Assembly: GCA_000996205.1 (NCBI GenBank) | Contig: LBYO01000005.1 | Location: 1,728 to 65,727 of the forward strand | Direction: 5' to 3' | Length of the DNA stretch: 64,000 nucleotides | Source: Parcubacteria group bacterium GW2011_GWA1_40_21 | GTDB taxonomy: Bacteria; Patescibacteriota; Minisyncoccia; Phycocordibacterales; GWA1-40-21 | Part shown: in pieces, positions 45,402-64,000 of the stretch | Position numbering within the stretch: position 1 is the stretch's first letter | Layout: each line of letters starts with the position of its first letter | Notes under the pieces: generated by a model | The model's input: the letters and a program-made list of their open reading frames with translations, nothing else | Told to the model about the DNA's origin: nothing | The model's database searches: none | Translations under genes and position numbers: made by a program

Positions 45402-45415
45402 TTAAAAATAAAATT

Positions 45416-48038: not shown

Positions 48039-48044
48039 CAGTCA

Positions 48045-48353: not shown

Positions 48354-48887
48354 TTAGGGAGAATAATAGGAAATATTATTTTCAATATTTCCTATTTTCT
48401 GATCAATAAACTCACGAGTGGCTTCATCCATTGAAAATAATGAGATGTGTTTGTATATAACCAAAGATTTCTCATAATTTCCAGTCTCATAATAGATATT
48501 GCCCAACAAGACGAGGAATCTAATGTAATTTACGGAATTCATATCTCGTATAGCCGACTGCAAACCTGAGAAAGCCATTTTTTCAGCAGTGAAAAATAAT
48601 TTAATTTCGTAAAAACAGTAAGTTAAATTTAAATGCGCCTCATCAGAATGCCACGAATGCAACGATTTGATATAACAAATTATGGCATTTTCATAATCAT
48701 GCTTGTTCTGCAAGATTTGTCCCATTTTAAATTCTTTTTCCGCTGTTAAAAATATACCCAAAGCCTCTTCGGTTGCGGATTTTATCGGATTGAATTTCGG
48801 AACTATGGCAAAAAGATTATGAGGAATAATAAGAAAAATCAAAACTATAAAAATAAGCCCACAAACAAAACTTTTTAAGTTTTTCAC
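48354..48887 (-). CDS. secreted TPR-like repeat protein
   Basis: signal peptide; repeats YENAIICYIKSLH / GNYEKSLVIYKH. Confidence 0.4.
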   Translation of the reverse strand: MKNLKSFVCGLIFIVLIFLIIPHNLFAIVPKFNPIKSATEEALGIFLTAEKEFKMGQILQNKHDYENAIICYIKSLHSWHSDEAHLNLTYCFYEIKLFFTAEKMAFSGLQSAIRDMNSVNYIRFLVLLGNIYYETGNYEKSLVIYKHISLFSMDEATREFIDQKIGNIENNISYYSP

Positions 48888-49063
48888 GGTCTCTATCCTT
48901 TATTAAAATGTCAAAAGATCTAAAATTTATTATTTGATGATAGGATATTTAATGCAAAATATCAATAGAGCGACCCAGATTCAAGTTCGCAGAGCAGGAA
49001 TTTCTCCCTCGCCTCTAAATTTTTTCAGTCAAAAAATTTAGGACTGGGCACAGGCTCGTAAAA

Positions 49064-49293
49064 TTTTCTGCTGAAAATTTTATACTCCGCCCTTCGAATC
49101 CTGCCCGTCCCGATGTTCATCGGGACTCTGGGCGGACAATTCCGCTTCGCTGCATTGTCCGCCCAGCAGTAATTTCTCGCCTACAGCGCGTGATTTTCTT
49201 GTTTCGCCGACTCAACATAGAAAATCCTTCGAATCCTGACGAGAGCCAAGCAGTTGGCTCTCTCTGAGCGGACAATTCCGCTTCGCTGCATTG
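49064..49293. repeat. tRNA-Lys-associated modular repeat region (two tandem units)
   Basis: two copies of gcggacaattccgcttcgctgcattgtccgcccagcag (38 bp; includes the tRNA 3' acceptor strand), two ccttcgaatcctg T-arm-like fragments, and a ttttctgctgaaaa hairpin. Confidence 0.7.
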
Positions 49294-49366
49294 TCCGCCC
49301 AGCAGGATTCGAACCTGCGACCAATCGCTTAAGAGGCGACTGCTCTACCAACTGAGCTATAGGCGG
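49294..49366 (-). tRNA. tRNA-Lys (anticodon CTT)
   Basis: manual fold of the minus strand: acceptor ccgccta/tgggcgg, D-arm gctcagttggtagagc, anticodon loop ctCTTaa, T-arm gcaggttcgaatcctgc; no encoded CCA. Confidence 0.8.
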
Positions 49367-49605
49367 ATTTTTATAAAAATAGGACTTGCGCATTTGGATG
49401 CAGTTCGAGGCGCGAGCTCGGCTTGCGACCAAGCTGTATTATTATACTGCGCGGGAGCAAACGAGCGAAGCAACGAAGAAATGCGCCGAACGCACAAGTC
49501 CTACAAAAATCTAGCAAATTTAGGACATAGTGGCAAATTTAAAACCCCACCTTTAAAACCCCACCGCTTTGAGTTTGCGATGGGGCTTTGTTCTTAAAAT
49601 ACGAT

Positions 49606-49959
49606 TTAAAAATTTAAGATCTCCTTAATTTTTTGCACGAATTTGAATTTGTCTGTCTTGTAATCGCATCCAGCAGACATTAATATGTCATTGAAATCTT
49701 CCACATTAGAGATAGCGATCATTGGGCGATCAGTGAAAGAATTTCTCATTTTTCGCGCTAGTTCCATTGTATTCGGTTCGTTACCGGGAACACAAGCGTC
49801 AACCGCAACCGCGCTTAAATCAGGATTATCATTAAAAGCCCTTTCCGCTTCTTCTAGAGAAAAAGCCTGAATTATATTAATGGGGTATTTATTTAACAAC
49901 TCCTTCCATTCTTCTTGTCTATCTGCGCTATCTTCTATTATTAAGATCTTTTTCCTCAT
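49606..49959 (-). CDS. single-domain response regulator (CheY-like receiver)
   Basis: KILIIEDS, phospho-acceptor region AVAVDACVPG, conserved K near the C-terminus. Confidence 0.65.
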   Translation of the reverse strand: MRKKILIIEDSADRQEEWKELLNKYPINIIQAFSLEEAERAFNDNPDLSAVAVDACVPGNEPNTMELARKMRNSFTDRPMIAISNVEDFNDILMSAGCDYKTDKFKFVQKIKEILNF

Positions 49960-49990
49960 AAAATCTCTCCTTCCGAATGAAAATTAAAGA

Positions 49991-50230
49991 TTAAACTTTT
50001 TTTTGAATTACCACATCTCCAGATTTTAATTTTTTGAATTGCAAGTTAAGTTTAATTTTTCCGTCTTGAGAAAGGGTGTTTCTGTTGTGTTGATGTTTAT
50101 CGAAATCCGGCTCATAAAATCCTTCAGATCCTCCTGTTTGGTCCAATAACCTTCCTACTTTTAATATTTTTTCGCAAATTAACATTTTAAGACCTCCCTT
50201 AGTAAATTTATATGGAAATGTAAAAAACAA
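49991..50230 (-). CDS. small hypothetical protein
   Basis: ORF only. Confidence 0.25.
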   Translation of the reverse strand: MFFTFPYKFTKGGLKMLICEKILKVGRLLDQTGGSEGFYEPDFDKHQHNRNTLSQDGKIKLNLQFKKLKSGDVVIQKKV

Positions 50231-50300
50231 ATTTTCTATTTAATTTATAGCATAAAATAATTTCTTTGCATATCCAAAAAATAAAAAGCAGAAAATTAGA

Positions 50301-50436
50301 TGGTGCCTGAGGTGGGAATCGGTCACAACTCTTTTACTGGAGCAAAAGGTCGCGACCCCGCCTCGCGCCGTCGCGCTCCGGCCTTCGATTCCCACTGACC
50401 AAATAAAAAACCTCATCAGAAATGAGATCTTTTATT
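50301..50436. repeat. tRNA-Leu-associated modular element (terminator, inverted T-arm copy, GC-rich core, hairpin, direct copy of the tRNA 3' 21 nt with CCA)
   Basis: read on the minus strand: ggtcagtgggaatcgaagg (inverted T-arm) + cggagcgcgacggcgcgaggcggggtcgcg + cttttgctccagtaaaag + gtgac + cgattcccacctcaggcacca. Confidence 0.75.
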
Positions 50437-50523
50437 TGGTGCCTGAGGTGGGAATCGAACCCACACGAGCTTTCGCCCATAACATTTTAAGTGTTACGTG
50501 TATACCAGTTTCACCACTCAGGC
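50437..50523 (-). tRNA. tRNA-Leu (anticodon TAA), class II with long variable arm, CCA encoded
   Basis: minus-strand fold: anticodon stem-loop taaca-cTTAAaa-tgtta, long variable arm gggcgaaagctcgtg, T-arm gggttcgattccc, terminal cacca. Confidence 0.8.
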
Positions 50524-51012
50524 TTTGTTTTTTAACATATTTCTTCCCCTATGTGTCGGTTTTAAACTATGGCAATTCGGACATAATATTCTTAAATTTT
50601 CCAATCTATTATCATGCCTATCGCCGTTTATGTGATCAAGTTCTAATGGAAGATACCCTTCTTTGTTTCTTGTGGACCAACCGCATTCTTCACAAAATTG
50701 TTTTTTTAAATTTTCACTAAATAATCTTTTTTTGAGCTTAAAACTTTGATAAGAAGAATCTTTCTTAAGAATAAACTCTAGAGGAGTAATTGGTTTGCCT
50801 ATGCCCCTCAAGCCCTTGTTCCAAGCTTTTCCTTTGAAATGAGAAATATTAAATTTATATTCTTTAATATATTTTTTAATTTGCTCATAATTTCCACCCG
50901 CCGCTACTAATCCTATCTTTTTTAAGACTTGTCTATAACTGGTTGAATCTTTAACAGCGACTTTTAATTGAGATATTTCCCACGATCTTTTCCTTCTGTT
51001 AATTTTCATCAA
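50518..51012 (-). CDS. stand-alone HNH endonuclease
   Basis: CEECGW ... LELDHINGDRHDNRLENLRILCPNCHS classic HNH/zinc-finger motif. Confidence 0.8.
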   Translation of the reverse strand: MMKINRRKRSWEISQLKVAVKDSTSYRQVLKKIGLVAAGGNYEQIKKYIKEYKFNISHFKGKAWNKGLRGIGKPITPLEFILKKDSSYQSFKLKKRLFSENLKKQFCEECGWSTRNKEGYLPLELDHINGDRHDNRLENLRILCPNCHSLKPTHRGRNMLKNKA

Positions 51013-51079
51013 TAAATGATATCAAATGGTAAACGGAAATCAACTCATTATAGTAAAAGCGTATTCCATTTAGATTAGA

Positions 51080-51150
51080 GGCCGCGGTCGGAATTGAACC
51101 GGCGCATAGGAGTTTTGCAGACTCCTGCCTTACCACTTGGCTACGCGGCC
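51080..51150 (-). tRNA. tRNA-Cys (anticodon GCA)
   Basis: minus-strand fold: ggccgcg acceptor, anticodon stem-loop ggagt-ctGCAaa-actcc, T-arm ccggttcaattccgg. Confidence 0.8.
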
Positions 51151-51250
51151 TTGAATTTTCAAAAAGCTGTATTCTTCTGGAATCTGGATTCTCGCCGGAG
51201 TTTACCCTCGTGAAGACGGGGGCGGAAATGACAGAAAATTTCAGATCAAT

Positions 51251-51574
51251 TTAATTATTTTCTAGAATTGCGTCAATTTTCTGTCGGTGTTTCTCGCCGG
51301 CGTCTATTTCAAAATCAAAAAATGGAATTCTTCCGGCTCTGATGTTTTTCTTGGCGAAATCCCTGAATTCAGCCCTCTTGCGCTTGGCGAAATCCAAAGC
51401 GGCTTTTTCCTTATCACTCGGATAGACCGTAAAAAATATAGTAGCATATTTTCCGTCTTTTGAAATCCGCACATCTGTCACAGTCACCATTGATACTCTG
51501 TTTGATTCAATGTTCAGAAATTTAGCCGCAACTTCTCTGATCATATCTTTAAGTTTTACGTCTCTATTTTTCAT
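51251..51574 (-). CDS. rbfA: ribosome-binding factor A
   Basis: RVSMVTVTDVRISKD..YATIFFTV matches the RbfA KH-like fold; start trimmed to MKNRDV so as not to overlap infB. Confidence 0.75.
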   Translation of the reverse strand: MKNRDVKLKDMIREVAAKFLNIESNRVSMVTVTDVRISKDGKYATIFFTVYPSDKEKAALDFAKRKRAEFRDFAKKNIRAGRIPFFDFEIDAGEKHRQKIDAILENN

Positions 51575-51575
51575 C

Positions 51576-53090
51576 TCACTTTTCCACAATTTTATAAGAC
51601 TCAATCTTGTCTCCCGGCGCTATCTCAATCGTCGCTTGGATCTGGCAACCAAATTCCATTCCTTCTTTAATTTCCGACACTTTCTTTTTTTGATGCTGTA
51701 ATTCTTTTATTTTGCCTCTTCCAACTTCTTGCTCTCTTCTCAGGATTTTAGCATCCTCGCCCAAGGAAATTAGTCCGGACTCAACTTTTCCTCCGACCAC
51801 ATATTTGTCTTTCGCTTTACTGAAGACGCGAATTATTTTCGCCACTCCAGATGTCTCTTCGGTCTCAAACTTCGGCGTGCTTTCGCGGGCTTTCGTTTCA
51901 ATCCATTCCGACAATTTGTAGATGACATCAAAGACTTTTATCTCCACGCCAAGCCTCTCGGCATAGCTTCGGGCTTTGGAATCAATAGCGGTATCAAATC
52001 CTAAAATTACTGTGCCTTCTTTGGCGTTCGCGGTTTTAACATCGTTCTCGGAAATGCCACCGATGCCGGAATGCACGATTTTTATTTTCACTCTGTCATT
52101 TTTTATTTTTCCTATCTCATGTTCTATAGCTTCAATTGATCCCATCGTCTCGGCTTTTAAAATAATATAGATAGAGAAAATATTTTCGTTTTCTTTATCA
52201 TTCGGGACTTTTTTCTTTGCGGGAATATTTTCTCTAAAAGTGGCGAGATGGCTTTCGGCCTCTTTTTTTGTTTCAAATGATTTGAACATTAAACCAACAG
52301 CAGGCAAGTCGCTAAAACCGACCACTTTAATCGGGCTTGAAAAACTAGCTTCCTTTATCTTCTTTCCGGTGAAATCTTCAATCAGTCTGGTGGAAGCGAT
52401 GCTTCCGCCGCTAGCGACAAACATTCCCGTCTTTAGTGTCCCGTCTTTTATTATGAGGGTGCCGGAAATCCCTTGGTGGCTGTCCAGATTAGCTTCAATG
52501 ACTACTCCCTCCGCGTTTTTATTCGTGTCGCCTTTCAGTTCTCCTATTTCGGCGACCAGAAGCATCATATCCAAAAGTTCCGATACTCCTTCGCCTGTTT
52601 TGGCGGAAATCGGAACCCATGGCACCGCGCCTCCGTATCCTTCAATATAAATTTCATTTTCCGCCAAATTTTGTTTCGTCTTTTCAACATCGGCTCCGGG
52701 CTTGTCTATTTTGTTTATCGCCACTATGTAGGGAATACCGCTGTCCTTTATGCACTTGAGAGCTTCAATGGTTTGCTTTTTAACGCCGTCTTCGGCGGAC
52801 ACGACAAGGACGGCTATATCAGCGACATCAACTCCGCGCTCTCTAATCGCGCAAAAAGCTTCATGTCCGGGCGTATCCAAAAAGGTTATTTTGTTCTCTT
52901 TGCCGGCTTTGCTTTTGTGAACAACTTCGTAGGCGGAGATTCTTTGAGTTATCCCGCCAGCCTCCTTTTCGGCGACCGTCGTCTTTCTAATGTAGTCAAG
53001 CAGGGTAGATTTTCCATGGTCAATATGCCCCATTATGCAAATAACGGGAGGACGCTCTATGATATTCGGTTGTTTATTGTCCGTTTTCAT
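51576..53090 (-). CDS. infB: translation initiation factor IF-2, short form (G domain to C-terminus, no N-terminal extension)
   Basis: RPPVICIMGHIDHGKSTLLD, DTPGHEAF, NKIDK; 504 aa. Confidence 0.9.
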   Translation of the reverse strand: MKTDNKQPNIIERPPVICIMGHIDHGKSTLLDYIRKTTVAEKEAGGITQRISAYEVVHKSKAGKENKITFLDTPGHEAFCAIRERGVDVADIAVLVVSAEDGVKKQTIEALKCIKDSGIPYIVAINKIDKPGADVEKTKQNLAENEIYIEGYGGAVPWVPISAKTGEGVSELLDMMLLVAEIGELKGDTNKNAEGVVIEANLDSHQGISGTLIIKDGTLKTGMFVASGGSIASTRLIEDFTGKKIKEASFSSPIKVVGFSDLPAVGLMFKSFETKKEAESHLATFRENIPAKKKVPNDKENENIFSIYIILKAETMGSIEAIEHEIGKIKNDRVKIKIVHSGIGGISENDVKTANAKEGTVILGFDTAIDSKARSYAERLGVEIKVFDVIYKLSEWIETKARESTPKFETEETSGVAKIIRVFSKAKDKYVVGGKVESGLISLGEDAKILRREQEVGRGKIKELQHQKKKVSEIKEGMEFGCQIQATIEIAPGDKIESYKIVEK

Positions 53091-53186
53091 TTTTTAGCTT
53101 GTTAGGCAATAGGAAGATGTCGGAAGATTTTAGGTTTTTCAGAGAATTTTCCTACAACCTACCACCTTGCCTGCTATTCGCGCTTT

Positions 53187-53654
53187 TTACGCCTGCGCCG
53201 AGTCTTTAGCTTTGTTTAGAGATTCCTTTTCCTCTTTCGTCATCTCGTATTCCGACGACAATTTTTTTATCGGCTTGGCGAAGACGCTGACACGATCCCT
53301 TGAATACAGACTTGAGATTACAACACCGTCGCCTTCTTCGTTTACAAAAGCCGTGGAGAAACTTTGATCGCCTCCCGAACCGTCTCCTTTAAAAGGGTTG
53401 AAGCGGATCGTTTCCACCCCTGTGACGCTTTTCCTGATTCTCCTTTCCACGCTTTCAAGATATTTTTCCGAAGCGTCTCTGTATTTCGTAATCGCTGACA
53501 ATTCTTTCCTTATCTCGGAAATAGTACTGTCCAGCGATTGATTTTTCCCGCCAAGAAGTCGGCGCAATTTAATTTCAAACCTGATAAGCCACAGAATGGC
53601 TAACACAAGCAATGCAGATAAGGCGTATAAAATATATATTTCAGGGATCATCAT
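53187..53654 (-). CDS. DUF4446-like membrane-anchored protein
   Basis: N-terminal TM, coiled region, then RFNPFKGDGSGGDQSF...GDGVVISSLYSRDRVSVFAKPI. Confidence 0.45.
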   Translation of the reverse strand: MMIPEIYILYALSALLVLAILWLIRFEIKLRRLLGGKNQSLDSTISEIRKELSAITKYRDASEKYLESVERRIRKSVTGVETIRFNPFKGDGSGGDQSFSTAFVNEEGDGVVISSLYSRDRVSVFAKPIKKLSSEYEMTKEEKESLNKAKDSAQA

Positions 53655-53960
53655 ATAACAAAGAATTCTACATTGTTTTTAGATATTACGCAATCGCAAT
53701 TAAGTTCATCAAGTCCTTAAAGTCATAAAGTCTATAAAGTTAGAGAAGAGAAAAGAAGTTGTCTTTTTTTCGACGAAGAAAAAGAAAAGGGGGGACGATA
53801 AATCCTGTTGCTTTTCGGTTTTATTTGTTATACTTTATTTGAATTTAATTCATTTCATTCCGGCGATGTCAAAATAAAAATACGGATGGTATATGTCGGA
53901 GTTTAATTTTGACAGAACTATGGATGAAAACACAGTTTATAAATTTAATAAATATTTTTT

Positions 53961-54119
53961 ATGAGATACGCATGGGTAAGTTTTGCAATTGTCGTCTTAT
54001 GGATATCGTCCACTATAATTATAGTGTCGGACAAATTAGTTAATCCAAATAATTTTTATATATTTATCGTGCTGACTACCGTGGTTGTTTCCTATATAGG
54101 TTTTAAGTCAGCCTCTTAA
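53961..54119 (+). CDS. small two-TM membrane protein (52 aa), paralogue of 55722..55886
   Basis: own translation MRYAWVSFAIVVLWISSTIIIVSDKLVNPNNFYIFIVLTTVVVSYIGFKSAS. Confidence 0.35.
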   Translation: MRYAWVSFAIVVLWISSTIIIVSDKLVNPNNFYIFIVLTTVVVSYIGFKSAS

Positions 54120-54145
54120 TTAGGTTAAATCATGCCTTTTTTAAA

Positions 54146-55705
54146 ATGACTCTATTTTTAGAAAGACTGTTTTATATTTTGAAGATAGCCATTAGGGCTT
54201 TGTCTAAGCCTGATTTAACTAAACCCCAACGTTTGAAATTGTTTTTTGAAGAGTCGGGAGGAGCTTTTATAAAACTTGGTCAAATATTGGCGCTGCGTCG
54301 AGACTTTCTGCCTGCGGAATATACCCTTGAGCTTCTTAAGCTGTTGAATGATATGCCTGCCGTGCCTTTTTCCGAAGTGAATAAAATTTTTACTGAAGAC
54401 ATCGGCGAGCCCGTAGAAAAGTTTTTCGCGTCATTTGACAGTGAGCCTATAGGCTCGGCTTCAGTGGCACAGGTCTATAAAGCCGTTCTTAAAAATGGCG
54501 AGGAAGTAGCGGTGAAGATCCTGCGTCCCGGCACTGAAAAAGTTTTCAAGGTTGATTTTTTAATCATATCTTTTTTCGCTTCGGCAATTGACTTGCTGAA
54601 TTTGACTTCTTTTCTGAGCGTTAGAGAAGTTGCAACTGATTTTATAAGATGGACAAAAAGAGAACTTGACTTCAGACATGAATCTAACAATGCCGTTGCC
54701 TTTTTAAAATATAGCAAAGGCGCGCCGGGAACGATAATACCTAAACAACACCAAGAATACACCTCGTCTAGAGTTTTGATTCAAGAGCTTATTTTAGGCG
54801 GGGTTTCAGTTTTGGATATAATTTTAGGCAAGTACAGCCGAGAACAGCTTATTGAAAAGAGAATTAATCCCGATAAGATGGCGCTGTATCTGATAAAAGA
54901 TGCTATGAGACAATATTTCATTGACGGATTTTTCCATGCCGACGCGCATCCGGCTAATTTGGCTTTTCTTCCGGGCGATGAAAATTCTCCTGAAGGAAAG
55001 ATTGCTTATTTTGATTTCGGCATAGTGGGGGAAGCAGAAAAAGAAAGCAGAATGACGCTCTTGAAATTTGTTTATGCTGTCTCGGCTAAAGACATTGAAC
55101 TAATAGCGAAATATTTGCTTGAATACGGTCGAAAAAATTTCAAAAAAGAGCTTCTTTATTCTTTTGAAGTTGAACCGGTAAAACAAAAAATCGTTAATGA
55201 TATTATTGGAATAATAGAGAAAGACATAGTTTCTCATTTTAAAACAGAGGTCCAAGAAATCATGGGGTCGTGGTTTGTCGACGAAAAAGACATCCAAGCA
55301 GATCTGAAAAAAAGATCTTCCGCTTTAGTTTTCATGAATTTAGTCAGAAAAGCTGAAAAATACGGAGTTCATTTTCCGTTGGATATAATTCTGTTTTTTA
55401 GGGGACTAGTCATTATTGACATGGTGGCTTTGCAAATATCTCCCCAGTTTGACATAATCAAAGCAATGGAATCTTTCTTTGAAAAGCATTCTATTGAAGA
55501 AATTGAAATAAAGGTAAGAAGTCAGGCCAATTGGAAAGAAATAGACAAAAAAATAATATCTCTCAACGATGACTGGGAATCGTCTGGAGAACGACTGATA
55601 ATGCAGAAAGAAAAGGTTGCAATAATGAGAGAGAGAATACTAGAAATAGTTTTTTATTACGCAGAGAGGCATCCTGAAATAAAGAATTTAATTAAACAAT
55701 TATAA
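54146..55705 (+). CDS. ABC1/UbiB-family atypical kinase
   Basis: LGQILALRRDFLP, SASVAQVYKA...VAVKILRPG, HADAHPANL, DFG motifs. Confidence 0.85.
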   Translation: MTLFLERLFYILKIAIRALSKPDLTKPQRLKLFFEESGGAFIKLGQILALRRDFLPAEYTLELLKLLNDMPAVPFSEVNKIFTEDIGEPVEKFFASFDSEPIGSASVAQVYKAVLKNGEEVAVKILRPGTEKVFKVDFLIISFFASAIDLLNLTSFLSVREVATDFIRWTKRELDFRHESNNAVAFLKYSKGAPGTIIPKQHQEYTSSRVLIQELILGGVSVLDIILGKYSREQLIEKRINPDKMALYLIKDAMRQYFIDGFFHADAHPANLAFLPGDENSPEGKIAYFDFGIVGEAEKESRMTLLKFVYAVSAKDIELIAKYLLEYGRKNFKKELLYSFEVEPVKQKIVNDIIGIIEKDIVSHFKTEVQEIMGSWFVDEKDIQADLKKRSSALVFMNLVRKAEKYGVHFPLDIILFFRGLVIIDMVALQISPQFDIIKAMESFFEKHSIEEIEIKVRSQANWKEIDKKIISLNDDWESSGERLIMQKEKVAIMRERILEIVFYYAERHPEIKNLIKQL

Positions 55706-55721
55706 TTTAACATATAAAAAT

Positions 55722-55886
55722 ATGAAATATCCTTGGGTGGGAATAACTTTGGGAACGATGTGGTTTGGTTCTGCTTATATAATAATAAGCAATTCAAAGA
55801 TTGATTCATCGACGGCTCTTTTTACGGCTATAATAGGCACAATTGTCGTAGCTTTTATCGGATTCCGCGCACCGAAGATAAAGTAA
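55722..55886 (+). CDS. small two-TM membrane protein (54 aa), paralogue of 53961..54119
   Basis: own translation MKYPWVGITLGTMWFGSAYIIISNSKIDSSTALFTAIIGTIVVAFIGFRAPKIK. Confidence 0.35.
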   Translation: MKYPWVGITLGTMWFGSAYIIISNSKIDSSTALFTAIIGTIVVAFIGFRAPKIK

Positions 55887-55997
55887 TCAAAAAAATTAAG
55901 TTAAAAAATGGGTCAAGTGTTTTCCCTTCTTTGATTTTTGACACAGAATGTCTAAAATAAATTGTCTTTTTGAGGACTTAACCGTTAGAATAATAAG

Positions 55998-57293
55998 ATG
56001 AGGAAAATTTACCCTAACACCTTGTCTGGGACGCCCCGTGTCCTTGGCTCAAAGTCGCTTCTTTCTCCCTTGCCCTTACGCAGAAAGCTTTTATCTAGAG
56101 GACAGGGTGTGAGGGTTTACTTAGACAATGCTTCAACGACGCCGATAAACAGGGAAGTCAAAAGGGTGATGGATAAATATATGACGGATGAATTTGGCAA
56201 TCCTAATTCAATTCATAAGATGGGTGTGGCGGCGAAAAATGCGGTTGATAACGCGCGCAAGAGCGTCGCCCTGTCTTTCAATTCTCATCCGGATGAAGTG
56301 ATTTTTAATTCCGGCGGGACGGAAGGAAACAATGCGGCGATTTTCGGCGTGTTCAATCATCTGAGAAAAAACGGCGTGAAGTATTCCGATATGCGCGCTA
56401 TTACCACCAACATTGAGCATAGCTCCGTCTTGGAATGTTTTAAGGAGCTTGAGAATAGAGGGGTGGCGGTTGATTACGCGCTGGTGGGTGAAAATGGAAT
56501 TGTTGACCCGATTACGATAAAAAAATTGCTCAAACCTGAAACCGTCTTAGTTTCAATAATGTATGCCAACAACGAAATCGGAACAATTCAACCGATAAAA
56601 GAAATCGCCAAAGCCATCCGAACTTTCAAAAAAAACCTATCACCCCGCCTCATCGGCGGGCAAGCTACAACCTTTCCCTTCTTTCACACCGATGCTTGCC
56701 AAGCTCCGCTTTTTCTAAATCTCAATGTTCAAGAGTTGGGAGTTGATTTTATGACGATTGATGGACAGAAAATTTACGGACCAAAAGGCGCCGGCGCGCT
56801 ATTCATAAAAAGAGGAGTGGAGATAGAGCCGATAATTTTCGGTGGCGGACAAGAAAAAGGATTAAGGTCGGGAACGGAAAATGTTCCGCTTATAGCGGGA
56901 TTAGCCAAAGCGATTGAAATCGCGAACAAGAACAGAATCAAGAACAGCGAACAAATTTCTAAAATTAGAGATTACGGCATAAAAAAGATAGAAGAAAAAA
57001 TTCCGCGGGCGGTATTGAACGGCGATAGGATTAAAAGATTGCCGAATAATATAAATACCTCTATTCCCGGAATTGATCCTGAATTCATGGTGCTTCAACT
57101 GGATGAAAAGGGAATCGTCTGTTCAACAAAAAGCGCCTGTCTAAAAGATGAATCCGCCTCTTATGTGATATCGGCGCTTGGAAAAGATGGAAAATATTCG
57201 CAATCATCGCTTAGATTTTCTCTTGGATTGGACACGGCGAAAAAAGATATGGACTATCTTGTGAAAATTCTAATTAAGTCCGTCAAGTTATAA
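55998..57293 (+). CDS. iscS: cysteine desulfurase (IscS/NifS class V aminotransferase)
   Basis: YLDNASTTP, SGGTEGNN, PLP-lysine region FMTIDGQKIYGPKGAGALF, active-site Cys loop STKSAC. Confidence 0.85.
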   Translation: MRKIYPNTLSGTPRVLGSKSLLSPLPLRRKLLSRGQGVRVYLDNASTTPINREVKRVMDKYMTDEFGNPNSIHKMGVAAKNAVDNARKSVALSFNSHPDEVIFNSGGTEGNNAAIFGVFNHLRKNGVKYSDMRAITTNIEHSSVLECFKELENRGVAVDYALVGENGIVDPITIKKLLKPETVLVSIMYANNEIGTIQPIKEIAKAIRTFKKNLSPRLIGGQATTFPFFHTDACQAPLFLNLNVQELGVDFMTIDGQKIYGPKGAGALFIKRGVEIEPIIFGGGQEKGLRSGTENVPLIAGLAKAIEIANKNRIKNSEQISKIRDYGIKKIEEKIPRAVLNGDRIKRLPNNINTSIPGIDPEFMVLQLDEKGIVCSTKSACLKDESASYVISALGKDGKYSQSSLRFSLGLDTAKKDMDYLVKILIKSVKL

Positions 57294-57379
57294 AGTTTGC
57301 AAAGTTCATAAAATGAAGATGAGAAATAATTAAGAATAAGTTCGTTTTCAACTTTACAGACTTTATAACTTTCAACTTT

Positions 57380-58471
57380 ATGACTGGCGCGCTACGCGCC
57401 TCGCTTGCCTTGTCTGTCGATTTGATTTATTATTTAGCAAATATGGAAAATCTCACCAAGCATCAGCTTATTCTCGTCGCTCTTCTCATAAGTTTCGTCA
57501 CATCAATCGCGACAGGTATCGTGACAGTGTCGCTTATGGATCAAGCGCCGAAAGCCGTTATCCAGACTATAAATAGGGTTGTGGAGAGGACGGTTGAACG
57601 AGTCGTGACCGAACCACCAAAGAAAGGAAGCGCTGTGGTTAAAGAAACTATCGTTGTTAAAGAAGAAGATAAGATAATAGAAGCGATTGAAAAGAACGCG
57701 AAAAGCATGGTTAGAATTTACAAAACAGATTCGTCTTCAAGCGCGGAAAATCCTCTTAAATCATTTGTCGGTTTGGGTATAATAATTTCAAAAGAAGGCG
57801 GCATAGCGACTGACGGCGCGATAATCGCGCCGTCAAGCTCGTATTCCGTGGTGCTAAATGACGCTAAAGAGTATGATGTCAAGACGCTACCATTAGAAGT
57901 AAAGAGCGCTATTGAGTTTTTAAAAATAGTTCCAAAAGTTGGAGAAGATTTGTCTTTAACTCCTGTGGTTTTGGCTAATTCCGACACTCTCAAGCTTGGG
58001 CAGACAGTCATATCTTTGGGAGGCAAATTGAGGAATAGCGTTTCTATCGGAGTCATTACGAGCTTCATAGAATCAAGCGATTCAAATTTTGAAAATACAA
58101 CAACGGCTGAAAGCATCGGATTATCATCACAGAATGAATCAACAACAACAACGATGCTGGCTACCGCAGATACCGGGAACCTCGCCGCAATCGTCAATGA
58201 ATCTGTTAAAGAAAATTCTCCTTTGGCCAAAGATTCCAAAGGCTTGCAGGCTAGCGCGGAAAAATCAATGATTCTGATTGAAACTAATATTATTCCGAAC
58301 GACAACACAACCGGCAATCCTTTCATAAATCTTTCAAGCGAAGTGGTGGGAATAAGAGTGAAATCGCCAAACGGCGCTCGGACAATATCATTCGTGCCGA
58401 TAAACGAAGTGAAGAAAAATTTCTCCGAATTGGAGGCATTGAGTAATTCATCAAAACAAAATGCCAATTAA
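57380..58471 (+). CDS. membrane-anchored trypsin-like (S1C/HtrA-like) domain protein, apparently catalytically inactive
   Basis: fold-level similarity to HtrA (GLGIIIS..GIATDGAII; GQTVISLGGKLRNSVSIGVITS; NTTGNPFINLSSEVVGI), but His (TNAHV) and Ser (GNSGGP) positions are replaced. Confidence 0.45.
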   Translation: MTGALRASLALSVDLIYYLANMENLTKHQLILVALLISFVTSIATGIVTVSLMDQAPKAVIQTINRVVERTVERVVTEPPKKGSAVVKETIVVKEEDKIIEAIEKNAKSMVRIYKTDSSSSAENPLKSFVGLGIIISKEGGIATDGAIIAPSSSYSVVLNDAKEYDVKTLPLEVKSAIEFLKIVPKVGEDLSLTPVVLANSDTLKLGQTVISLGGKLRNSVSIGVITSFIESSDSNFENTTTAESIGLSSQNESTTTTMLATADTGNLAAIVNESVKENSPLAKDSKGLQASAEKSMILIETNIIPNDNTTGNPFINLSSEVVGIRVKSPNGARTISFVPINEVKKNFSELEALSNSSKQNAN

Positions 58472-58617
58472 ATTTTACACTTTGAATTATGAAAAATTAT
58501 TCTGATTTCCTAAAAACCTACAACCTAACACCTACCACCCACAACCTGTTCGGCAGTTTGACAAGCCTTAAAAAGTCGGTATAATGCGAATATATTGAAT
58601 AATATTTAGAAAAATTT

Positions 58618-61314
58618 ATGCCTCCATTTACTCAATTCACAACAAAAGCAAAAGAAGCCGTGAGAAAAGCTCACGAGCTTGCCATTGAGCGGGGACAAAA
58701 TCATGTGAACCCGCTTCATCTTCTCTCGGCGCTAATCTTACAGGAAGAAAGTATGGTGTCTTCAATATTAGACAAGCTGGAAGTGGACATCATTCTTCTC
58801 ACGGACTCTCTGCTTGAAGCGATTGAGACAAATGAAACATCAAATACGATTTCTCCTTCTTATCAGCTTTACCTTACTCCTGAATTGGCCCAGACTATTG
58901 AAGGTGCCGGCAAAGTTGCCGCATCTCTTAAAGATGATTTTATTTCAACCGAGCATCTTTTCATCGCTCTTTTTGACGCGGCTCAAACGGCCCGTGAAAT
59001 ACTTAGCCGATTTAAAATTGACAAGGCTGGCGTAATGAGAGTTCTTGAAGAGCTCAAGACTAGCAAGGTGACGGATGTTCATCTTCCCAAGAAAAACAAA
59101 TCCATATCAAGATACACCAGAAGCCTGACGAAGCTAGCCCAAGAAAACAAGCTTGACCCAGTCATCGGGCGCGATGATGAGATTTCAAGAATAATCCAAA
59201 TTCTTTCCAGAAGAACAAAAAACAATCCTATCTTAATTGGAGAGGCCGGAGTGGGCAAGACCGCGATCGTGGAAGGATTGGCGATAAGAATGGCTTTGGG
59301 CGATGTGCCGGAATCTCTCAAGGAGAAAGAGCTCGTGTCGCTTGATCTCGGTGCGCTTGTGGCTGGCACGAAATACCGAGGCGAATTTGAAGAGAGATTA
59401 AAAAACATAATCAAAGAAATTGAGCGGGCGGAGGGAAAGATTATCGTGTTCATAGACGAAATACACACAATCGTCGGCGCCGGTTCTGCCGAAGGTTCGC
59501 TTGACGCTTCCAATATGCTGAAGCCCGCTCTTTCTCGCGGAGAATTCCGATCTATCGGAGCAACGACGCTTAAAGAATATCAAAAACATATTGAAAAAGA
59601 CCCGGCGCTCACGAGAAGATTCCAGCCTGTGTATGTGAACGAGCCTTTGCTTGAAGACGCGGTGGCTATCTTGCGCGGACTAAAAGAGAAATACGAGCTG
59701 TATCACGGGGTGAGGATTACCGATGACGCTATTTTGGCCGCCGTCAACCTAAGCAGCAGATACATCACCGACAGATTCTTGCCGGACAAAGCTATAGACC
59801 TCATAGACGAATCGGCCTCGGCTCTTAAGATTTCACTGGAAAATATGCCGCCGATTCTTGAAGAGACTCGAAGAAAAGTTATGCGGCTTGAAATTGAAAG
59901 AGAAGCGCTTCGAAAGGAAATTGAAATTGGAAGCAAAAAATCGATTAAAGCCAGAATCAAAAAAATTGAGAAAGACATAGCCGATTTGAAAGAGAAAACT
60001 TCGGAAATAGAGCTTAAGTGGAAAAATGAAAAAAATATTCTTTCCGACATAAAATCAATCAAGAAACAGCTTGAATCCCTGAGAATGGATGCGGAAGGGG
60101 CGGAGGCGCGGGCGGATCTTTCTAAAGCGGCCGAGATAAGATACGGCAAAATACCCCAGCTAGAGAAAGATTTGGAAATGAAACTAAAGAGGCTGAAAAC
60201 TCTGCAAAGCACGAGAAGAATTCTTAAAGAGGAAATAACTGAAGCCGATATCGCGTCAGTCGTTTCTCGCTGGACAGGGATACCGACTGCCAGAATGTTG
60301 GAAGAAGAAGCTGAAAAGCTGAACAGAATGGAAGAAACGCTCAAAAAAAGAATAATCGGTCAAGATGAAGCGGTCAAAAAAATCGCCGATACGATAAAAA
60401 GATCTCGGGCGGGAATCGCTGATCCGAACAGGCCTATCGGCTCATTTATATTTTTGGGTCCGACTGGAGTGGGGAAGACCGAACTCACAAAAGCTCTGGC
60501 TGGATTCGTATTTGACGACGAAAAATCGCTTATTCGCGTGGATATGTCGGAATTTATGGAAAAGCATTCGGTGTCCAAGCTTATCGGCGCTCCGCCCGGA
60601 TATGTCGGACACGAAGAGGGCGGAACTTTCACCGAGATGATTCGGCACAGGCCATATTCCATTATTCTTTTTGACGAGATTGAAAAAGCTCATCCGGAGG
60701 TGTTTAATATATTGTTGCAGATTTTGGACAACGGAAGATTGACTGATGCCAAAGGAAGATTGGTGAATTTTAAAAACGCTGTGATTATTATGACTTCCAA
60801 TATTGGAGCTCAATACATAGACAAAATGGAACAAATTGGATTCAAGGATGTTTCTGTTACCGGCGACGATAATTATCTGAATGTAAAAAACAAAGTCCTC
60901 GCGAGCCTCAAGGATTATTTCAGGCCGGAATTTCTAAACCGGCTTGACGATATAATTGTCTTTGATATTTTGAGTCAGGACGCGATAAAAGAGATTGTAA
61001 AAATCCAAGTTGATATTGTTAAAGAAAGGCTATCGGCAAAAGAAATCAAAATGGAAGTTTCGCCGGAAGCGCTTTCCTATTTGGCGAAAGAAGGGTATAA
61101 TCCGCACTACGGCGCGAGACCGCTTAAGCGTCTGATTCAAAATAAGATATTAACCCAAATTGCGTCTTCTATGATATCTAAAAACCTCTCCAAGGGTGAT
61201 GCGGTATTCGTAAATTTGAAAGGAGAAGAATTTGATTTTGAAATCAAGAAAGGCAAAAAGGGAAGATTGCTTTCGGATTTGAGCAGGGTGAGTAGAAAGG
61301 AAAGCGTCGTTTAG
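58618..61314 (+). CDS. clpB: AAA+ disaggregase ClpB
   Basis: two Walker A boxes GEAGVGKT and GPTGVGKT, middle coiled-coil domain, Clp N-domain. Confidence 0.92.
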
Positions 61315-61350
61315 TTTATAAAAACTTGGTAATCGGAGTACCAAGTGTAA

Positions 61351-61434
61351 TGCGTAGGTGGCAGAGCGGTCAATTGCATCAGACTGTAAATCTGACGCCC
61401 TATGGGCTACGGGGGTTCAAATCCCTCCCTACGC
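61351..61434 (+). tRNA. tRNA-Tyr (anticodon GTA), long variable arm, no encoded CCA
   Basis: acceptor gcgtagg/cctacgc, anticodon stem-loop cagac-tGTAaa-tctg (G-U closing), variable arm cgccctatgggctac, T-arm gggggttcaaatccctcc. Confidence 0.8.
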
Positions 61435-61724
61435 ACAGCGAGTCTTCGAGTTGGGCAGGAAGAAGCGCGGGGCGCTTCTGTGAGGGATTTGAAGCCCGAT
61501 TGAGCCGAGCTTGGAGTGTCTTCACGAACAAGCGAGCCAATCGGGGTACTGAACGAGTAGCGTTCAAATCCCTCCCTACGCACTAAGAAAAAATGCCAGA
61601 TTCTTTATCTGGTATTTTTTGTTAGTCGCGGAGGGATTTGAAGGTCGGAGCGCGACGGCGCGAGACGGGGTCGCGGGATTTTTCAGCAGAAAAATACCCG
61701 TGACCAAATCCCTCCCTACGCACC
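61435..61724 (+). repeat. tRNA-Tyr-associated modular elements: two tandem units, each = inverted T-arm copy ... direct copy of tRNA-Tyr 3' end; unit 2 has the GC-rich core shared with the tRNA-Leu element
   Basis: gagggatttgaag (61491, 61631), ttcaaatccctccctacgca direct copies at 61564 and 61704 (the latter followed by cca), core cggagcgcgacggcgcgagacggggtcgcg 61645..61674, hairpin ttttcagcagaaaa. Confidence 0.75.
61587..61620 (+). terminator. rho-independent terminator inside the tRNA-Tyr element array
   Basis: gccagat tcttt atctggt followed by attttttg. Confidence 0.6.
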
Positions 61725-61824
61725 ACTTCGCTTTGTTTTCACAAAGCTACTCGGTGCAAGCACAAAATTGAGTCCCCGAAATTTCGGGCGTAAAAAAACA
61801 TTCCTGATGGAATGTTAAGTTTAA

Positions 61825-61915
61825 TATGGCAGGCAAATGGTAGAGAGTTGATTAGGAGAAAAACCCTCGTTTCTTGAATCCGTTTTGGCGTATCGGTAAA
61901 CCATCTGCCTGCCAT
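61825..61915. repeat. 18-bp inverted repeat pair flanking a 55-nt spacer
   Basis: atatggcaggcaaatggt ... accatctgcctgccatat (one mismatch). Confidence 0.5.
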
Positions 61916-62060
61916 ATTATATAACTATATCGAACATTATTCTGTTTTTATTATATTGGTATGCGGCAATAAGTCAAAAACAATAGGCTTTAAACGACAT
62001 GCTAGTTGAATTGATTGAGTAGTGTTTTCTTTTTATCTTTTTTTGCTATTATGCTTTTGT

Positions 62061-64000
62061 ATGAATATGAAACATAAAGCAAAAATTTTTCATTTTGTCG
62101 GATATGAATTTGATGTAAATGCCAGAAAAATATTTTTCAAATATCGCATAGAATTTTATAATCAACATTCTTTAAATTTTACCGAAACGATTATTTTTCC
62201 GAATCACCCAAAAAAATTAAAAGAAGAATCAATCCAAAAAATTCTTGAATCTTTGCTTATTGTTTTGGGTATTAGTTATTACAAATTATATTGCCCTCCG
62301 CGAGTGACAATGCCTTTCAGGCTTTCACGAGAACAAGCGGATTTCTGGAATACCGTTTATAGAAAAGGACTTGGAGAATTTTTATACAGGAACAAACTTG
62401 ACCCAAAGCGATTGGCAAAATTTTCATACTCCAACATTAAAATTTATCCGGATAGAATTAAAACTCAAGACCGCGCCCTTTTGGGAATTGGCGGGGGCAA
62501 AGATTCAATTGTGGCCGCAGAATTATTGAAAGATTTTGACATAGTTTCTTTCTTGGTTGAGACGCAAAAGCAAGATCTAATTTCTGACAGTGTTATTGAT
62601 AAAATCGGCAGACCGTCTTTGAAAATAAGAAGGGTGCTTGATCTTAAAATATTTGAAAAACACGATGGGGCGTATAACGGACATATTCCAATCTCGGCAA
62701 TTTTTGCGTTTTTGGGACTTCTCACGGCAGCTATTTATGAATACAAATATGTGATTGTCGCAAATGAACACAGCAGTAATTTTGGCAACTTGCAGTATAA
62801 AGGAGAAATCATAAATCATCAGTGGAGCAAGTCTGTTGAGTTTGAGTCGCTGTTTCAAGAATATACAAGGAAATTCATTACGCCGGACATAGTCTATTTT
62901 TCGCTACTTAGGCAGTTTTATGAAATCAGAATCGCGCGGATGTTCGTCGAACATAAAAAATACTTTCCGCTGTTTGCCAGTTGCAACAGAAACTTCAGAG
63001 TTTTCAAAGACCGTCCCGGCTCTCTGTGGTGCGGCGAGTGTCCAAAATGCGCCTTTGCTTTTTTGATGTTGGCCTCGTTTGTTGGCAAAAAAGAAGTCAT
63101 TGGCATATTTAAGAAAAATCTTTTTGCGGATAAATTACTTCTTCCCCTTTTCCAAGATTTGCTCGGGTTTGGAAAACTTAAGCCGTTTGATTGCGTTGGG
63201 ACATTTGAAGAATCGCAAACAGCCCTTTTTCTCGCTTCAAAAAAATTCAAAAATGAAATTATAATAAAAACTTTTTTACCAAAAATAAGGAATCCTGAAA
63301 AACTTATAGAACGGGTTTTTAAAACATATCCGGCACCGACAGTTCCGACACCTTTTCGTTTTCTCGGCATTAAGAATGTTTGTATTTTGGGTTACGGCAA
63401 AGAAGGCAAAATCACGGAAAAATATATCAAGAAAAACCATCCAAATTTAAAAATAGGCATTCTTGATCAAACCACGGATAAGAAATATCTTGAACGGCAG
63501 AAAAACTACGATTTGGCGATTAAAACACCCGGAATCGCCAAAGAAAAAGTTAAAATTCCCTATACTACCGCCACAAATATTTTCTTTTCTCAAAATAAAA
63601 ATTTCATTATAGGGGTCACCGGGAGCAAGGGAAAAAGCACGACAGCAAGCCTTATCTATGAAATTATTAAAGCTTCTGGTAAAAAAGTTCGTCTGATTGG
63701 CAACATTGGAAATCCGATGCTGGAAGTTCTTTTTACGAAAATTGATCCTAATGAGATTTTTGTCGCGGAGCTTTCCAGTTATATGCTGGACGACATAGAA
63801 TATTCTCCCAATATCGCTTTGCTTTTAAATCTTTTTCCTGACCATATGGATTATCACGGCGGAGTTGAAAATTATTACAAAGCCAAGAAAAACTTTTTTA
63901 AATTTCAGAAACAAGGAGATTTGGCCGTCAAACCGCCTTTTGATGAAAAAATTCCGCTTCAAAAAAGTGAAATTCCTTTGATTGGCGCTCACAACATTAA
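62061..64000 (+). CDS. murD: fusion protein (partial, runs off the window): N-terminal PP-loop ATPase domain (MurL-like?) + C-terminal UDP-N-acetylmuramoyl-L-alanine--glutamate ligase MurD
   Basis: own translation finds no stop from 62061 to the window end; PP-loop GIGGGKDS and CGECPKC in the N-terminal part; MurD motifs ILGYGKEG, GVTGSKGKSTTASL, GNIGNPMLE, ELSSYML, DHMDYHGG..NYY.AK in the C-terminal part; absent from the ORF track because no stop in window. Confidence 0.7.
   Translation, partial: MNMKHKAKIFHFVGYEFDVNARKIFFKYRIEFYNQHSLNFTETIIFPNHPKKLKEESIQKILESLLIVLGISYYKLYCPPRVTMPFRLSREQADFWNTVYRKGLGEFLYRNKLDPKRLAKFSYSNIKIYPDRIKTQDRALLGIGGGKDSIVAAELLKDFDIVSFLVETQKQDLISDSVIDKIGRPSLKIRRVLDLKIFEKHDGAYNGHIPISAIFAFLGLLTAAIYEYKYVIVANEHSSNFGNLQYKGEIINHQWSKSVEFESLFQEYTRKFITPDIVYFSLLRQFYEIRIARMFVEHKKYFPLFASCNRNFRVFKDRPGSLWCGECPKCAFAFLMLASFVGKKEVIGIFKKNLFADKLLLPLFQDLLGFGKLKPFDCVGTFEESQTALFLASKKFKNEIIIKTFLPKIRNPEKLIERVFKTYPAPTVPTPFRFLGIKNVCILGYGKEGKITEKYIKKNHPNLKIGILDQTTDKKYLERQKNYDLAIKTPGIAKEKVKIPYTTATNIFFSQNKNFIIGVTGSKGKSTTASLIYEIIKASGKKVRLIGNIGNPMLEVLFTKIDPNEIFVAELSSYMLDDIEYSPNIALLLNLFPDHMDYHGGVENYYKAKKNFFKFQKQGDLAVKPPFDEKIPLQKSEIPLIGAHNI

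Follow-up and report, generated by a model that had tools for sequence, protein, structure and literature searches.

A folded 64-nucleotide module with target-matched arms beside tRNA and other conserved genes of candidate phyla radiation bacteria

Introduction

An established route of DNA exchange, used by CTX phage at dif and by integron cassettes at attI, runs through a folded, single-stranded attachment site. Repeated or inserted DNA is also described beside tRNA genes – at the Escherichia coli tyrT locus, 178-bp repeats (RtT RNA, RF00391) form tandem units 3′ of tRNA-Tyr that each end in a copy of about 19 nt of the tRNA 3′ end, and Williams is said to have sorted, in 2002, the integrases of tRNA-gene-targeting islands into sublocation classes. 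Here we describe a family of units in a 64,000-nucleotide stretch of DNA from Parcubacteria group bacterium GW2011_GWA1_40_21 (contig LBYO01000005.1; the whole stretch is called the window throughout) and in other bacteria of the candidate phyla radiation (CPR). In these units a folded module, M, stands between an inverted and a direct copy of the end of the neighbouring gene.

The original prediction, made from the window alone, held that three of its four tRNA genes (Tyr, Leu and Lys, not Cys) are followed by modular elements that combine a conserved core with arms copied from the adjacent tRNA. All of the features that it described are present, at exact coordinates or within a few bases, and the family is genuine, with the core at at least 119 loci and with arm and repeat counts above those of controls. 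Like the tyrT repeats, the tRNA-Tyr units lie in tandem downstream of the gene and end in a copy of its 3′ end; the tyrT repeats, unlike these units, lack an inverted arm and a core shared by other tRNAs. RtT gave no match (E up to 1) in Rfam scans of window positions 48000-64000 and eight loci.

Results

M is a three-helix module folded on one strand

The window contains exactly two copies of the core GGAGCGCGACGGCGCGAGRCGGGGTCGCG, at 61647-61675 (+) beside tRNA-Tyr and at 50351-50379 (-) beside tRNA-Leu, and shuffled sequence never yields it. The sole difference between the two cores, A versus G, is offset by a U versus C just upstream, and the base pair is kept. A small hairpin, TTTTCAGCAGAAAA, likewise has two sites in the window (61680 and 49064). 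The core-bearing Tyr and Leu units adopt the same three-way junction fold, with z-scores of -6.2 and -5.2.

We scanned one genome per species for 22 exact core bases; all counts of exact-core copies given here and below, and of the units and loci that hold them, are among the matches listed. Of 112 distinct copies of M, 104 measure exactly 64 nt; the consensus is rAG-nC-GGA-[GCGC GACG GCGC]-GAG-nC-GGGGUCG-[15-bp hairpin, bulged A, AGCA-type loop]-yGUGAC. Across 114 sequences, 98% of cells in the proposed structure are paired (27-51% in slid controls), and 374 cells carry double changes, compared with 91±8 in shuffles. A G·U wobble is conserved in 110 of the 114 copies. The given strand outfolds its complement in every one of the 114, with RNA and DNA energy parameters alike, which indicates that the fold is selected on one strand. 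The internal loop formed by GGA and GA was considered as a k-turn; its bulge in the alignment is a single nucleotide, so it is not a canonical one.

A covariance model of M (R1) was used to search the window and the other loci. It found the two true copies in the window, a decayed remnant in the second tRNA-Lys unit and nothing else. Across loci it gave 157 matches in 98 loci, often in arrays and including diverged copies. R1 also recovered a form of M of about 88 nt in which the two hairpins swap character; GGA...GAG, GGGGUCG and GUGAC are constant across forms.

Neither Rfam 15 nor a full-text literature search yielded a description of the M family, in keeping with the original prediction, which could not match it to a described element class. 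M had no match in a permissive cmscan (E up to 1; window 48000-64000 and eight loci) or in a gathering-threshold scan of nine loci; these scans returned tRNA, rRNA, tmRNA and group I intron, together with chance-level microRNA and small-RNA matches that overlap repeat arms or lie elsewhere. Box C/D RNAs and hammerhead, twister and HDV-like ribozymes were ruled out by architecture, by the lack of an Rfam match or by both. A group I intron remnant was also rejected, since no unit matched Intron_gpI in these scans and the units lie outside the intact gene, whereas such an intron has a P3-P9 catalytic core and is inserted within a single functional gene copy; introns in Patescibacteria tRNAs are located at position 35/36 (PMC13011429). 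Separately, one locus with M beside 5S rRNA carries a group I intron at the 3′ end of its 23S rRNA gene (L088, 1220-1419).

Units are built from the end of a conserved gene

The exact core is present at at least 119 loci, nearly all in Patescibacteria, and its lineages include Saccharibacteria, Paceibacteria and Nomura-, Kaiser-, Yonath-, Levy- and Sungiibacteria; a single match in a haloarchaeon is due to chance. Many matches lie at contig ends, as expected of a multi-copy repeat. Downstream of a same-strand tRNA gene, mostly 20-100 nt away, we found 66 of 122 copies, which represent at least 15 amino-acid types. This spread over many different tRNAs bears out the original argument that the core is not the scar of one tRNA-specific integrase. 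The check proposed in the original prediction, whether every core lies 3′ of a tRNA gene with matching arms, showed that the element is not tRNA-specific – other copies are hosted by tmRNA, 5S rRNA (some antisense), rplL and the interior of another M, and many copies carry a hairpin of their own in place of matching arms.

The units share a layout, which reads from the gene outward as X – S – Z′ – M – X. X stands for the terminal segment of a highly conserved gene, most often a tRNA from position 56 to its 3′ end; alternatives are the acceptor end with the trailer, the end of tmRNA or 5S rRNA, and the last codons of rplL. Z′ repeats the first 10-20 nt of X in inverted orientation, and S is a loop of 3-15 nt, a terminator hairpin or about 1 kb of cargo. 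Pairing of Z′ with the upstream X gives a hairpin, P0, whose loop is S, and pairing with the downstream X gives a stem, P1, whose loop is M; in a circular X-S-Z′-M the two pairings coincide as the single stem of a dumbbell. An exact direct repeat of at least 12 nt of the 3′ flank, within 400 nt upstream, is present in 27 of 113 units and in none of 113 controls, and arm pairing of at least 6 bp in 45 of 113 units and 14 of 113 controls.

Host genes of several kinds follow this layout. In the acceptor-end class the arms are …GCG|CACAAAC with Z′ GTTTGTGCG (acceptor end plus trailer); L086 duplicates the end of 5S rRNA, the L089 unit follows tmRNA, and the units of L099 and L111 duplicate the last codons and stop codon of rplL. 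Many units bear their own 5′ hairpin P0 (for example TGAGAAGC-GAATACTTGGA-GCTTCGCA) in place of target-derived arms, and this P0 itself covaries. In L158, a sister species of the window organism, the arms have changed jointly (GAGAGATTTG/CAAATCTC) although the distal X no longer matches the tRNA, which shows that Z′:X pairing is maintained after insertion.

Arrays of M units occur in the window, L053, L089, L093 and L158. In both window units the tRNA and M are separated by a terminator-like hairpin with a T-run, as they are in 13 of 30 units analysed. Cargo is exemplified by L024, where 1 kb that includes tRNA-His and tRNA-Arg(TCG) extends from tRNA-Arg(TCT) to M and a repeat of the 3′ end of that tRNA. 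In L113, two M units follow directly on a CBASS-type operon (213-3623; S24 peptidase, SAVED effector and SMODS cyclase); a copy of the tRNA-Glu 3′ end with CCA comes after the second of them, and the tRNA-Glu gene lies beyond the stretch covered.

Units at the window tRNA genes

The features of the four window tRNA loci are collected in Table 1. Next to tRNA-Tyr, GTTCAAATCCCTCCCTACGCAC is present in three direct copies (61415, 61562 and 61702) and GAGGGATTTGAAG in two (61482 and 61631), the latter being a complement of the T-loop and 3′ T-stem that is perfect over 12-13 nt. Z′2 has two possible pairing partners, one copy of X upstream of it and one downstream. Immediately 3′ of the gene the sequence reads CAG instead of CCA, and the distal repeat is probably the displaced 3′ end of the ancestral gene.

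Table 1. Features of the tRNA-Tyr, tRNA-Leu, tRNA-Lys and tRNA-Cys loci, in window positions.
Feature	Position	Strand	Basis or remark
tRNA-Tyr(GTA) gene	61352-61435	+	ARAGORN, Rfam; without encoded CCA
X, repeated target segment (last 20 nt of tRNA-Tyr)	61416-61435	+	Direct-repeat family D1
Spacer S1 of unit 1 (CAGCGAG..., holds hairpin GAAGAAGCGCGGGGCGCTTC)	61436-61481	+	Sequence; absent in L016 with the rest of unit 1
Z′1, GAGGGATTTGAA, inverted copy of tRNA positions 54-65	61482-61493	+	Inverted repeats I1, I4; 100% complementary
N-module, interior of unit 1, a structured insert other than M	61494-61562	+	Unit fold z-score -5.2; homologues in L153, L158
Direct repeat 1, tRNA-Tyr 3′ end, TTCAAATCCCTCCCTACGCA, without CCA	61563-61582	+	Distal boundary of polymorphic unit 1
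Spacer S2 of unit 2, terminator-like hairpin with A-run and T-run (AAAAAATGCCAGAT...ATCTGGTATTTTTT)	61583-61630	+	Sequence, fold of S
Z′2, GGAGGGATTTGAA, inverted copy of T-loop and T-stem	61630-61642	+	Inverted repeats I2, I3, I5
Module M, 64 nt, helices P2a/P2b and P3, GTGAC end	61641-61704	+	R1 91.7 bits, E 3e-23
Distal direct repeat, tRNA-Tyr positions 56-73 plus CCA	61705-61725	+	CCA at 61723-61725
tRNA-Leu(TAA) gene, CCA encoded	50437-50523	-	ARAGORN, Rfam
Leu spacer S, terminator-like hairpin with T-run, from tRNA-Leu to the element	50396-50436	-	Inverted repeat I1, 19 nt
Leu Z′, GTGGGAATCGAA, inverted copy of tRNA-Leu positions 54-65	50384-50395	-	Inverted repeats I2, I3
Module M of the Leu element	50322-50385	-	R1 80.6 bits, E 3e-20
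Leu direct repeat, CGATTCCCACCTCAGGCACCA, tRNA-Leu positions 56-76	50301-50321	-	Direct-repeat family D1
tRNA-Lys gene	49293-49366	-	ARAGORN, Rfam
tRNA-Lys unit 1, interior without M	49158-49292	-	Acceptor-end palindrome, GCGAAGC loop
tRNA-Lys unit 2	48993-49157	-	Z′ GCAGGATTCGAA at 49093-49104; vestigial direct repeat CCTGCT
tRNA-Cys gene	51078-51150	-	ARAGORN, Rfam

The N-module of unit 1 takes the position of M in tRNA-Tyr arrays of the window, L153, L157 and L158. It consists of CCCGATTG...CAATCGGG around GCCGAGCTTGGAG...CAAGCGAGC, followed by GTACTGAAC, and is probably a sister family of M. Downstream of the array, an inverted repeat of about 100 nt (61820-61921; ATATGGCAGGCAAATGGTA ... 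TACCATCTGCCTGCCATAT) lies 5′ of a MurL-like gene and is kept in L158; Rfam scans of both strands gave just chance-level microRNA matches for it.

At tRNA-Leu the direct repeat of the 3′ end spans 26 nt and the inverted arms (50384-50395) 10-12 nt. Both tRNA-Lys units are degenerate. Unit 1 contains the hairpin GAGCCAACTGCTTGGCTC, Z′ CAGGATTCGAA at 49228-49238 and a direct repeat of the tRNA-Lys 3′ end at 49158-49169, and unit 2 contains a decayed long-form M (49058-49107; R1 13.7 bits, E 0.07) that retains the TTTTCAGCAGAAAA hairpin. No unit lies alongside tRNA-Cys within the window.

Several further structures recur in these arrays. The tRNA-Lys acceptor end pairs with its own trailer across a GCGAAGC loop (49126-49169 and 49262-49305 on the reverse strand, and also in L027), and the resulting 44-nt palindrome is present as an entire duplicate; the GCGAAGC heptamer is an unusually stable DNA mini-hairpin. 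The small hairpin GAGCCAACTGCTTGGCTC / GCGAGCAAACTGCTTTGCTCGC recurs within arrays of the window (49244-49261, reverse strand), L157, L089, L101, L131 and L029. A full 20-nt inverted copy of the tRNA end is split just after ...AGG by this hairpin in L157 and by a different one in L153.

Two other groups of window genes were noted. An HNH endonuclease gene (50518-51012, reverse strand, 164 aa) has its stop codon within tRNA-Leu, and its product has more than 6000 homologues, the best 120 of which are 70-97% identical (mostly 70-79%). We considered it as a homing endonuclease and rejected this identity: the order infB-rbfA-tRNA-Cys-HNH-tRNA-Leu is fixed across distant CPR genomes and is present where M is absent, and the gene is a conserved CPR gene. 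A defence and restriction cluster (41628-46585, forward strand) encodes a Fic protein, an EcoRI-like adenine methylase, a RhuM-family protein and a GmrSD-type endonuclease with an HNH domain.

Units are insertion/deletion polymorphisms

The family is multi-copy, its units are insertion/deletion polymorphisms, and orthologous empty sites exist. In a strain variant 98% identical to the window (L016), unit 1 of the tRNA-Tyr array is missing exactly between the 20-nt repeats. Two further strain variants (L138 and L140) diverge one base after the repeat of tRNA-Lys unit 1 and have an IS630-like segment instead of unit 2. This segment, the counterpart of window position ~49157, comprises HTH and DDE_3 open reading frames (ORFs) at ~2930-4162 in L138 and ~3300-3662 in L140. 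At tRNA-Leu, a comparison of 10 strain contigs gave no allele without M.

The comparison of syntenic tRNA loci that the original prediction called for did find loci without the element, at both tRNA-Leu and tRNA-Tyr. The infB-rbfA-tRNA-Cys-HNH-tRNA-Leu(TAA) loci of three distant CPR genomes (L165-L167) have neither M nor arms. Related tRNA-Tyr genes with an identical 3′ end (L147, L155, L156 and L161) are followed by just an encoded CCA and a terminator, and that of L164 likewise encodes CCA and lacks the element. An exact empty site would read GGTTCGATTCCCACCTCAGGCACCATCTAA at tRNA-Leu and GGTTCAAATCCCTCCCTACGCACCACTTCG at tRNA-Tyr.

Copy number and insertion site vary as well. The array of the sister species L158 reads N1-M2-N3 where that of the window reads N1-M2, and the M unit at tRNA-Tyr is of the T-loop type in the window, whereas those of L064 and L106 are of the acceptor-end type. 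Antisense to rRNA operons, intact copies of M are found in the 23S-5S spacer of L086 and in interrupted second 5S copies of L018 and L132. In L093 a 97-nt P0+M unit is nested inside another M, and in L036, L085, L108, L122 and L125 P0+M units interrupt partial 5′ tRNA copies just upstream of the intact gene. These insertions into 5′ partial copies replace 2-3 target nucleotides and cause no duplication. In 29 of 41 cases GG or AG directly precedes the foot of P0, where the background is 10.7%.

Perfect palindromes were also observed at metagenome tRNA-Tyr loci, where the terminator stem is lengthened by an inverted copy of the tRNA 3′ end – by 8 nt in L150 and L164, which have no M, and by 20 nt in L151 and L160. 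These extended palindromes may represent an early stage of unit formation.

Comparison with described systems

By analogy, M units appear to work most like integron attC and CTX attP(+) sites. attC sites share with them a size of ~60-140 nt, a structure conserved on one strand and an inverted pair that flanks a structured centre. In both, the site lies at the distal end of each cassette, arrays build up at a single point of entry, cargo varies from none at all to complete operons, and the chromosomal order is entry site, cargo, inverted core, centre, core. M units have an attC-type single-strand structure at the distal cassette end in an array. The logic of variation is reversed: attC keeps its R″/R′ cores constant and varies the centre, whereas M units keep the centre constant and vary the arms with the target. 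The R″/R′ motif (RYYYAAC ... GTTRRRY) is not found as a stem in M units, whose arms copy the adjacent gene and differ by locus. Unlike integrons, M units have no IntI gene, attI or Pc platform (a Pfam scan of window ORFs found no IntI); they enter at the end of a conserved gene, tRNA or other, which the cassette rebuilds, and their repeats are 7-30 nt long rather than 7.

CTX attP(+) and other Xer-exploiting elements resemble M units in that inverted, target-like sites ~60-90 nt apart fold into a hairpin that mimics the target, and the product has the same order as an M unit – target, element, inverted copy, spacer, direct copy. In contrast, M-unit arms are not dif-like, the target genes are many, units are as small as ~120 nt and phage genes are lacking. 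We also found no sign of phage-borne M in a scan of viral contigs with an 18-nt core: its seven matches were all due to chance, lying inside GC-rich phage coding sequence with unshared flanks.

REP/REPIN sequences with their RAYT enzymes and PATEs (IS200/IS605, HUH Y1) are likewise short, multi-copy, strand-specific hairpins that lack terminal inverted repeats and depend on an enzyme acting in trans. Further likenesses are P0+M insertions without target duplication and a GG/AG motif 5′ of the left hairpin. The P0+M units have hairpins at both ends and replace 2-3 target nucleotides; a cognate TnpA was not identified. M, by contrast, is no simple palindrome: it has three helices and invariant junctions, and duplicated gene ends go with it.

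The window does encode a RAYT-like IS200-type Y1 transposase (9108-9809, reverse strand, 233 aa, HUH motif NHYHLL). We rejected it as the enzyme of M, since it is flanked by a palindrome of its own, GGACATCGGATGTCC, and not by M. This REP-like palindrome (TTTGGACATCGGATGTCCAAA) is found at the flanks of the gene (9041-9078 and 9834-9848, with a doublet downstream), inside it (9628-9642) and 5 kb away (14538-14552), and is absent from the 145 loci examined. Beside the gene lies one for a Cas4-like PD-(D/E)XK nuclease (9892-10698, forward strand); no CRISPR array was noticed nearby.

tRNA-targeting islands are similar in their direct repeat of the tRNA, running from the T-loop or acceptor end to the 3′ end as in M units, in restoration of the gene by the incoming element, in tandem arrays and in cargo islands. 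They differ in that M units have no integrase, are minimally ~120-145 nt without an ORF, use one core for many tRNAs and non-tRNA genes, and place an inverted arm and a module beside the distal repeat. TIGR-Tas arrays consist of 36-nt units with 8-12-nt repeats, 9-nt spacers and box C/D motifs next to a Nop-domain Tas gene (PMC12045711). Judged against that description, M was rejected as a TIGR-Tas array: it is a 64-nt three-helix module with arms of 10-21 nt and no repeat/spacer periodicity.

Discussion

We favour, at about even confidence, the reading that M units form a CPR-wide family of small mobile DNA cassettes, non-autonomous and acting by way of a folded single strand. As cassettes they are structure-defined and unusual in coupling a constant core to target-tailored arms. 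Their fold is strand-specific, they follow one layout, they are polymorphic, they form arrays and carry cargo, and the host gene is preserved – a cassette that behaves as if it inserts without destroying its host gene.

From these observations we infer a single-stranded intermediate and an exchange within X. A circular single strand X-S-Z′-M would fold as a dumbbell in which the X:Z′ stem mimics the target, and this dumbbell would swap one strand with the top strand of the target inside X. M would serve as the constant recognition or folding module and X:Z′ as the target-matched stem. The cassette would bring its own copy of X, which would leave the host gene whole and push its former end distally, and repeated insertion events would generate arrays. 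The enzyme would act in trans; a tyrosine (Xer-like), HUH/Y1 or serine recombinase could serve. The units within 5′ partial tRNA copies misfit this simple dumbbell product, a difficulty for the model that calls for a second mode: the discrete P0+M insertions could reflect a self-contained form that replaces 2-3 nt of target, or secondary-site events.

Several other points weigh against the mobile-cassette reading. Among 784 ORFs at the 118 loci, no recombinase or transposase is enriched, and the commonest neighbours of M are housekeeping genes (IF-2, SmpB, ClpB, RecG and an aminotransferase). Neither an excised circle nor a junction was seen. The loss of unit 1 in L016 is equally explicable by homologous deletion between the 20-nt repeats. 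The core pattern fixed 22 exact bases, so the conservation seen at first pass is partly built in, the diverged copies having come later through R1; and the direct-repeat, arm-pairing and GG/AG counts treat related copies as independent. M is, moreover, near-invariant over very deep CPR lineages, which is unusual for selfish DNA and would be consistent as well with a functional RNA or a binding site for a host protein.

That last point leads to the alternative which fares best, that M functions as a structured RNA, be it a small RNA, a ribozyme, a protein-binding RNA or an element for processing or stability. Its transcription would accompany or follow that of stable-RNA genes, and its tRNA-derived arms would form a closing stem or act as a decoy or antisense on pre-tRNA. 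We regard this as unlikely, if well worth weighing. RNAs of this kind typically show covariation, a conserved G·U wobble and invariant nucleotides at junctions, as M does; the core is extremely conserved over the CPR; M lies on the sense strand of the tRNA in the 66 tRNA-associated copies (of 122); in L099 and L111 it sits in the rplL 3′ untranslated region, before the terminator; and in L158 arm pairing was kept by compensatory change. This reading does not account for the copies that lie antisense to rRNA operons (where they are intact), nested in other copies or in broken gene fragments, and a T-run terminator stands ahead of M in both window units and in the 13 of 30 mentioned above. Copy number and location differ among close relatives, orthologous loci are empty, Rfam gives no match, and the arm and repeat logic extends to non-tRNA genes and to non-mature trailer. 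The decoy or antisense action on pre-tRNA raised in the original prediction is weakened.

Slightly less probable is an origin that needs no dedicated enzyme, in which the inverted arm would come from template-switch growth of palindromes at terminator hairpins and the complete construct of gene end, insert and duplicated gene end would pass from genome to genome by natural transformation and RecA recombination, the conserved gene supplying both homology arms and M hitch-hiking. The graded perfect palindromes at tRNA-Tyr, from 8 nt in L150 and L164 to 20 nt in L151 and L160, are what such growth would leave, the targets (tRNA, tmRNA, 5S rRNA and rplL) are the most conserved sequences of the genome, recombinases are not enriched nearby, and spacer S is sometimes homologous to the native downstream flank (L116 and the window tRNA-Leu). 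This account leaves the fixed 64-nt length and covarying fold of M unexplained, along with insertions that lack homology (the nested unit of L093 and those in tRNA 5′ fragments) and the GG/AG preference, and RecA needs longer homology than the 7-nt repeats of the acceptor-end class provide.

It is more doubtful again that the units are decayed attL...attR scars of islands inserted by tRNA-targeting tyrosine integrases, with M a leftover attP-arm or regulatory segment. The direct repeats do start at the T-loop or the acceptor 3′ end, which Williams (in 2002) reportedly named as integrase crossover sublocations in tRNA genes; in L024 cargo separates the tRNA from M and the repeat, and in L113 it is found just upstream of M and the repeat; and the distal copy retains an ancestral CCA. 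Yet no integrase adjoins any of the 118 loci, the same core serves at least 15 tRNA types and non-tRNA genes, the minimal 120-145-nt units are themselves polymorphic, M is structurally selected in every copy and on one strand only, and insertions are found nested and antisense to an rRNA operon.

The original prediction took the terminal CCA of the distal tRNA-Tyr copy as a hint of RNA-mediated origin, and this did not survive. It is better explained as the CCA once encoded by the ancestral gene, whose end was displaced, than as a retro-copy, because element-free relatives encode CCA, the middle copy lacks it, repeats include trailer (28 nt past the mature 3′ end in L116, and also in L035 and L053) and some arms are not RNA 3′ ends. 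A 3′ arm reverse-transcribed from a mature CCA-tailed tRNA, for example by template switching, and then integrated is thus largely refuted and highly improbable, even though the distal copy ends in CCA where the adjacent gene does not (window tRNA-Tyr, L017 and L030) and its 18-21 nt recall the length of retroviral primer-binding sites: arms also derive from 5S rRNA 5′ ends, rplL coding sequence and tRNA 5′ halves, and no reverse transcriptase was seen near any of the 118 loci in their 784 ORFs.

Should the mobile-cassette reading hold, CPR bacteria, whose tiny genomes are regarded as poor in mobile DNA, would possess an insertion system spread over the whole phylum, by which DNA enters the ends of tRNA, tmRNA and rRNA genes and leaves them undamaged. 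Targeting would rest on base-pairing or structural mimicry and not on a site-specific protein, which would be of interest for engineering. The same reading would explain the recurrent assembly breaks beside tRNA genes in CPR bins and odd trailers (CAAA versus CCA). There is a minority chance that we are dealing with a guided recombination system of a genuinely new type, or else with a new structured RNA. In the former case, which we consider a fairly remote prospect, M would be the scaffold of a programmable, nucleic-acid-guided CPR recombination system, with Z′ and X as guides that specify the target, one arm complementary to each of its strands, read by a conserved enzyme encoded elsewhere. 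Such a system would insert cassettes, from empty units to defence operons, without an integrase and with essential genes rebuilt, and could be retargeted by a change of arms alone. If M is instead a functional RNA, it would rank among the most widespread undescribed structured RNAs in bacteria. Under either reading, R1 offers a direct handle for a census of the family and for experiments on it.

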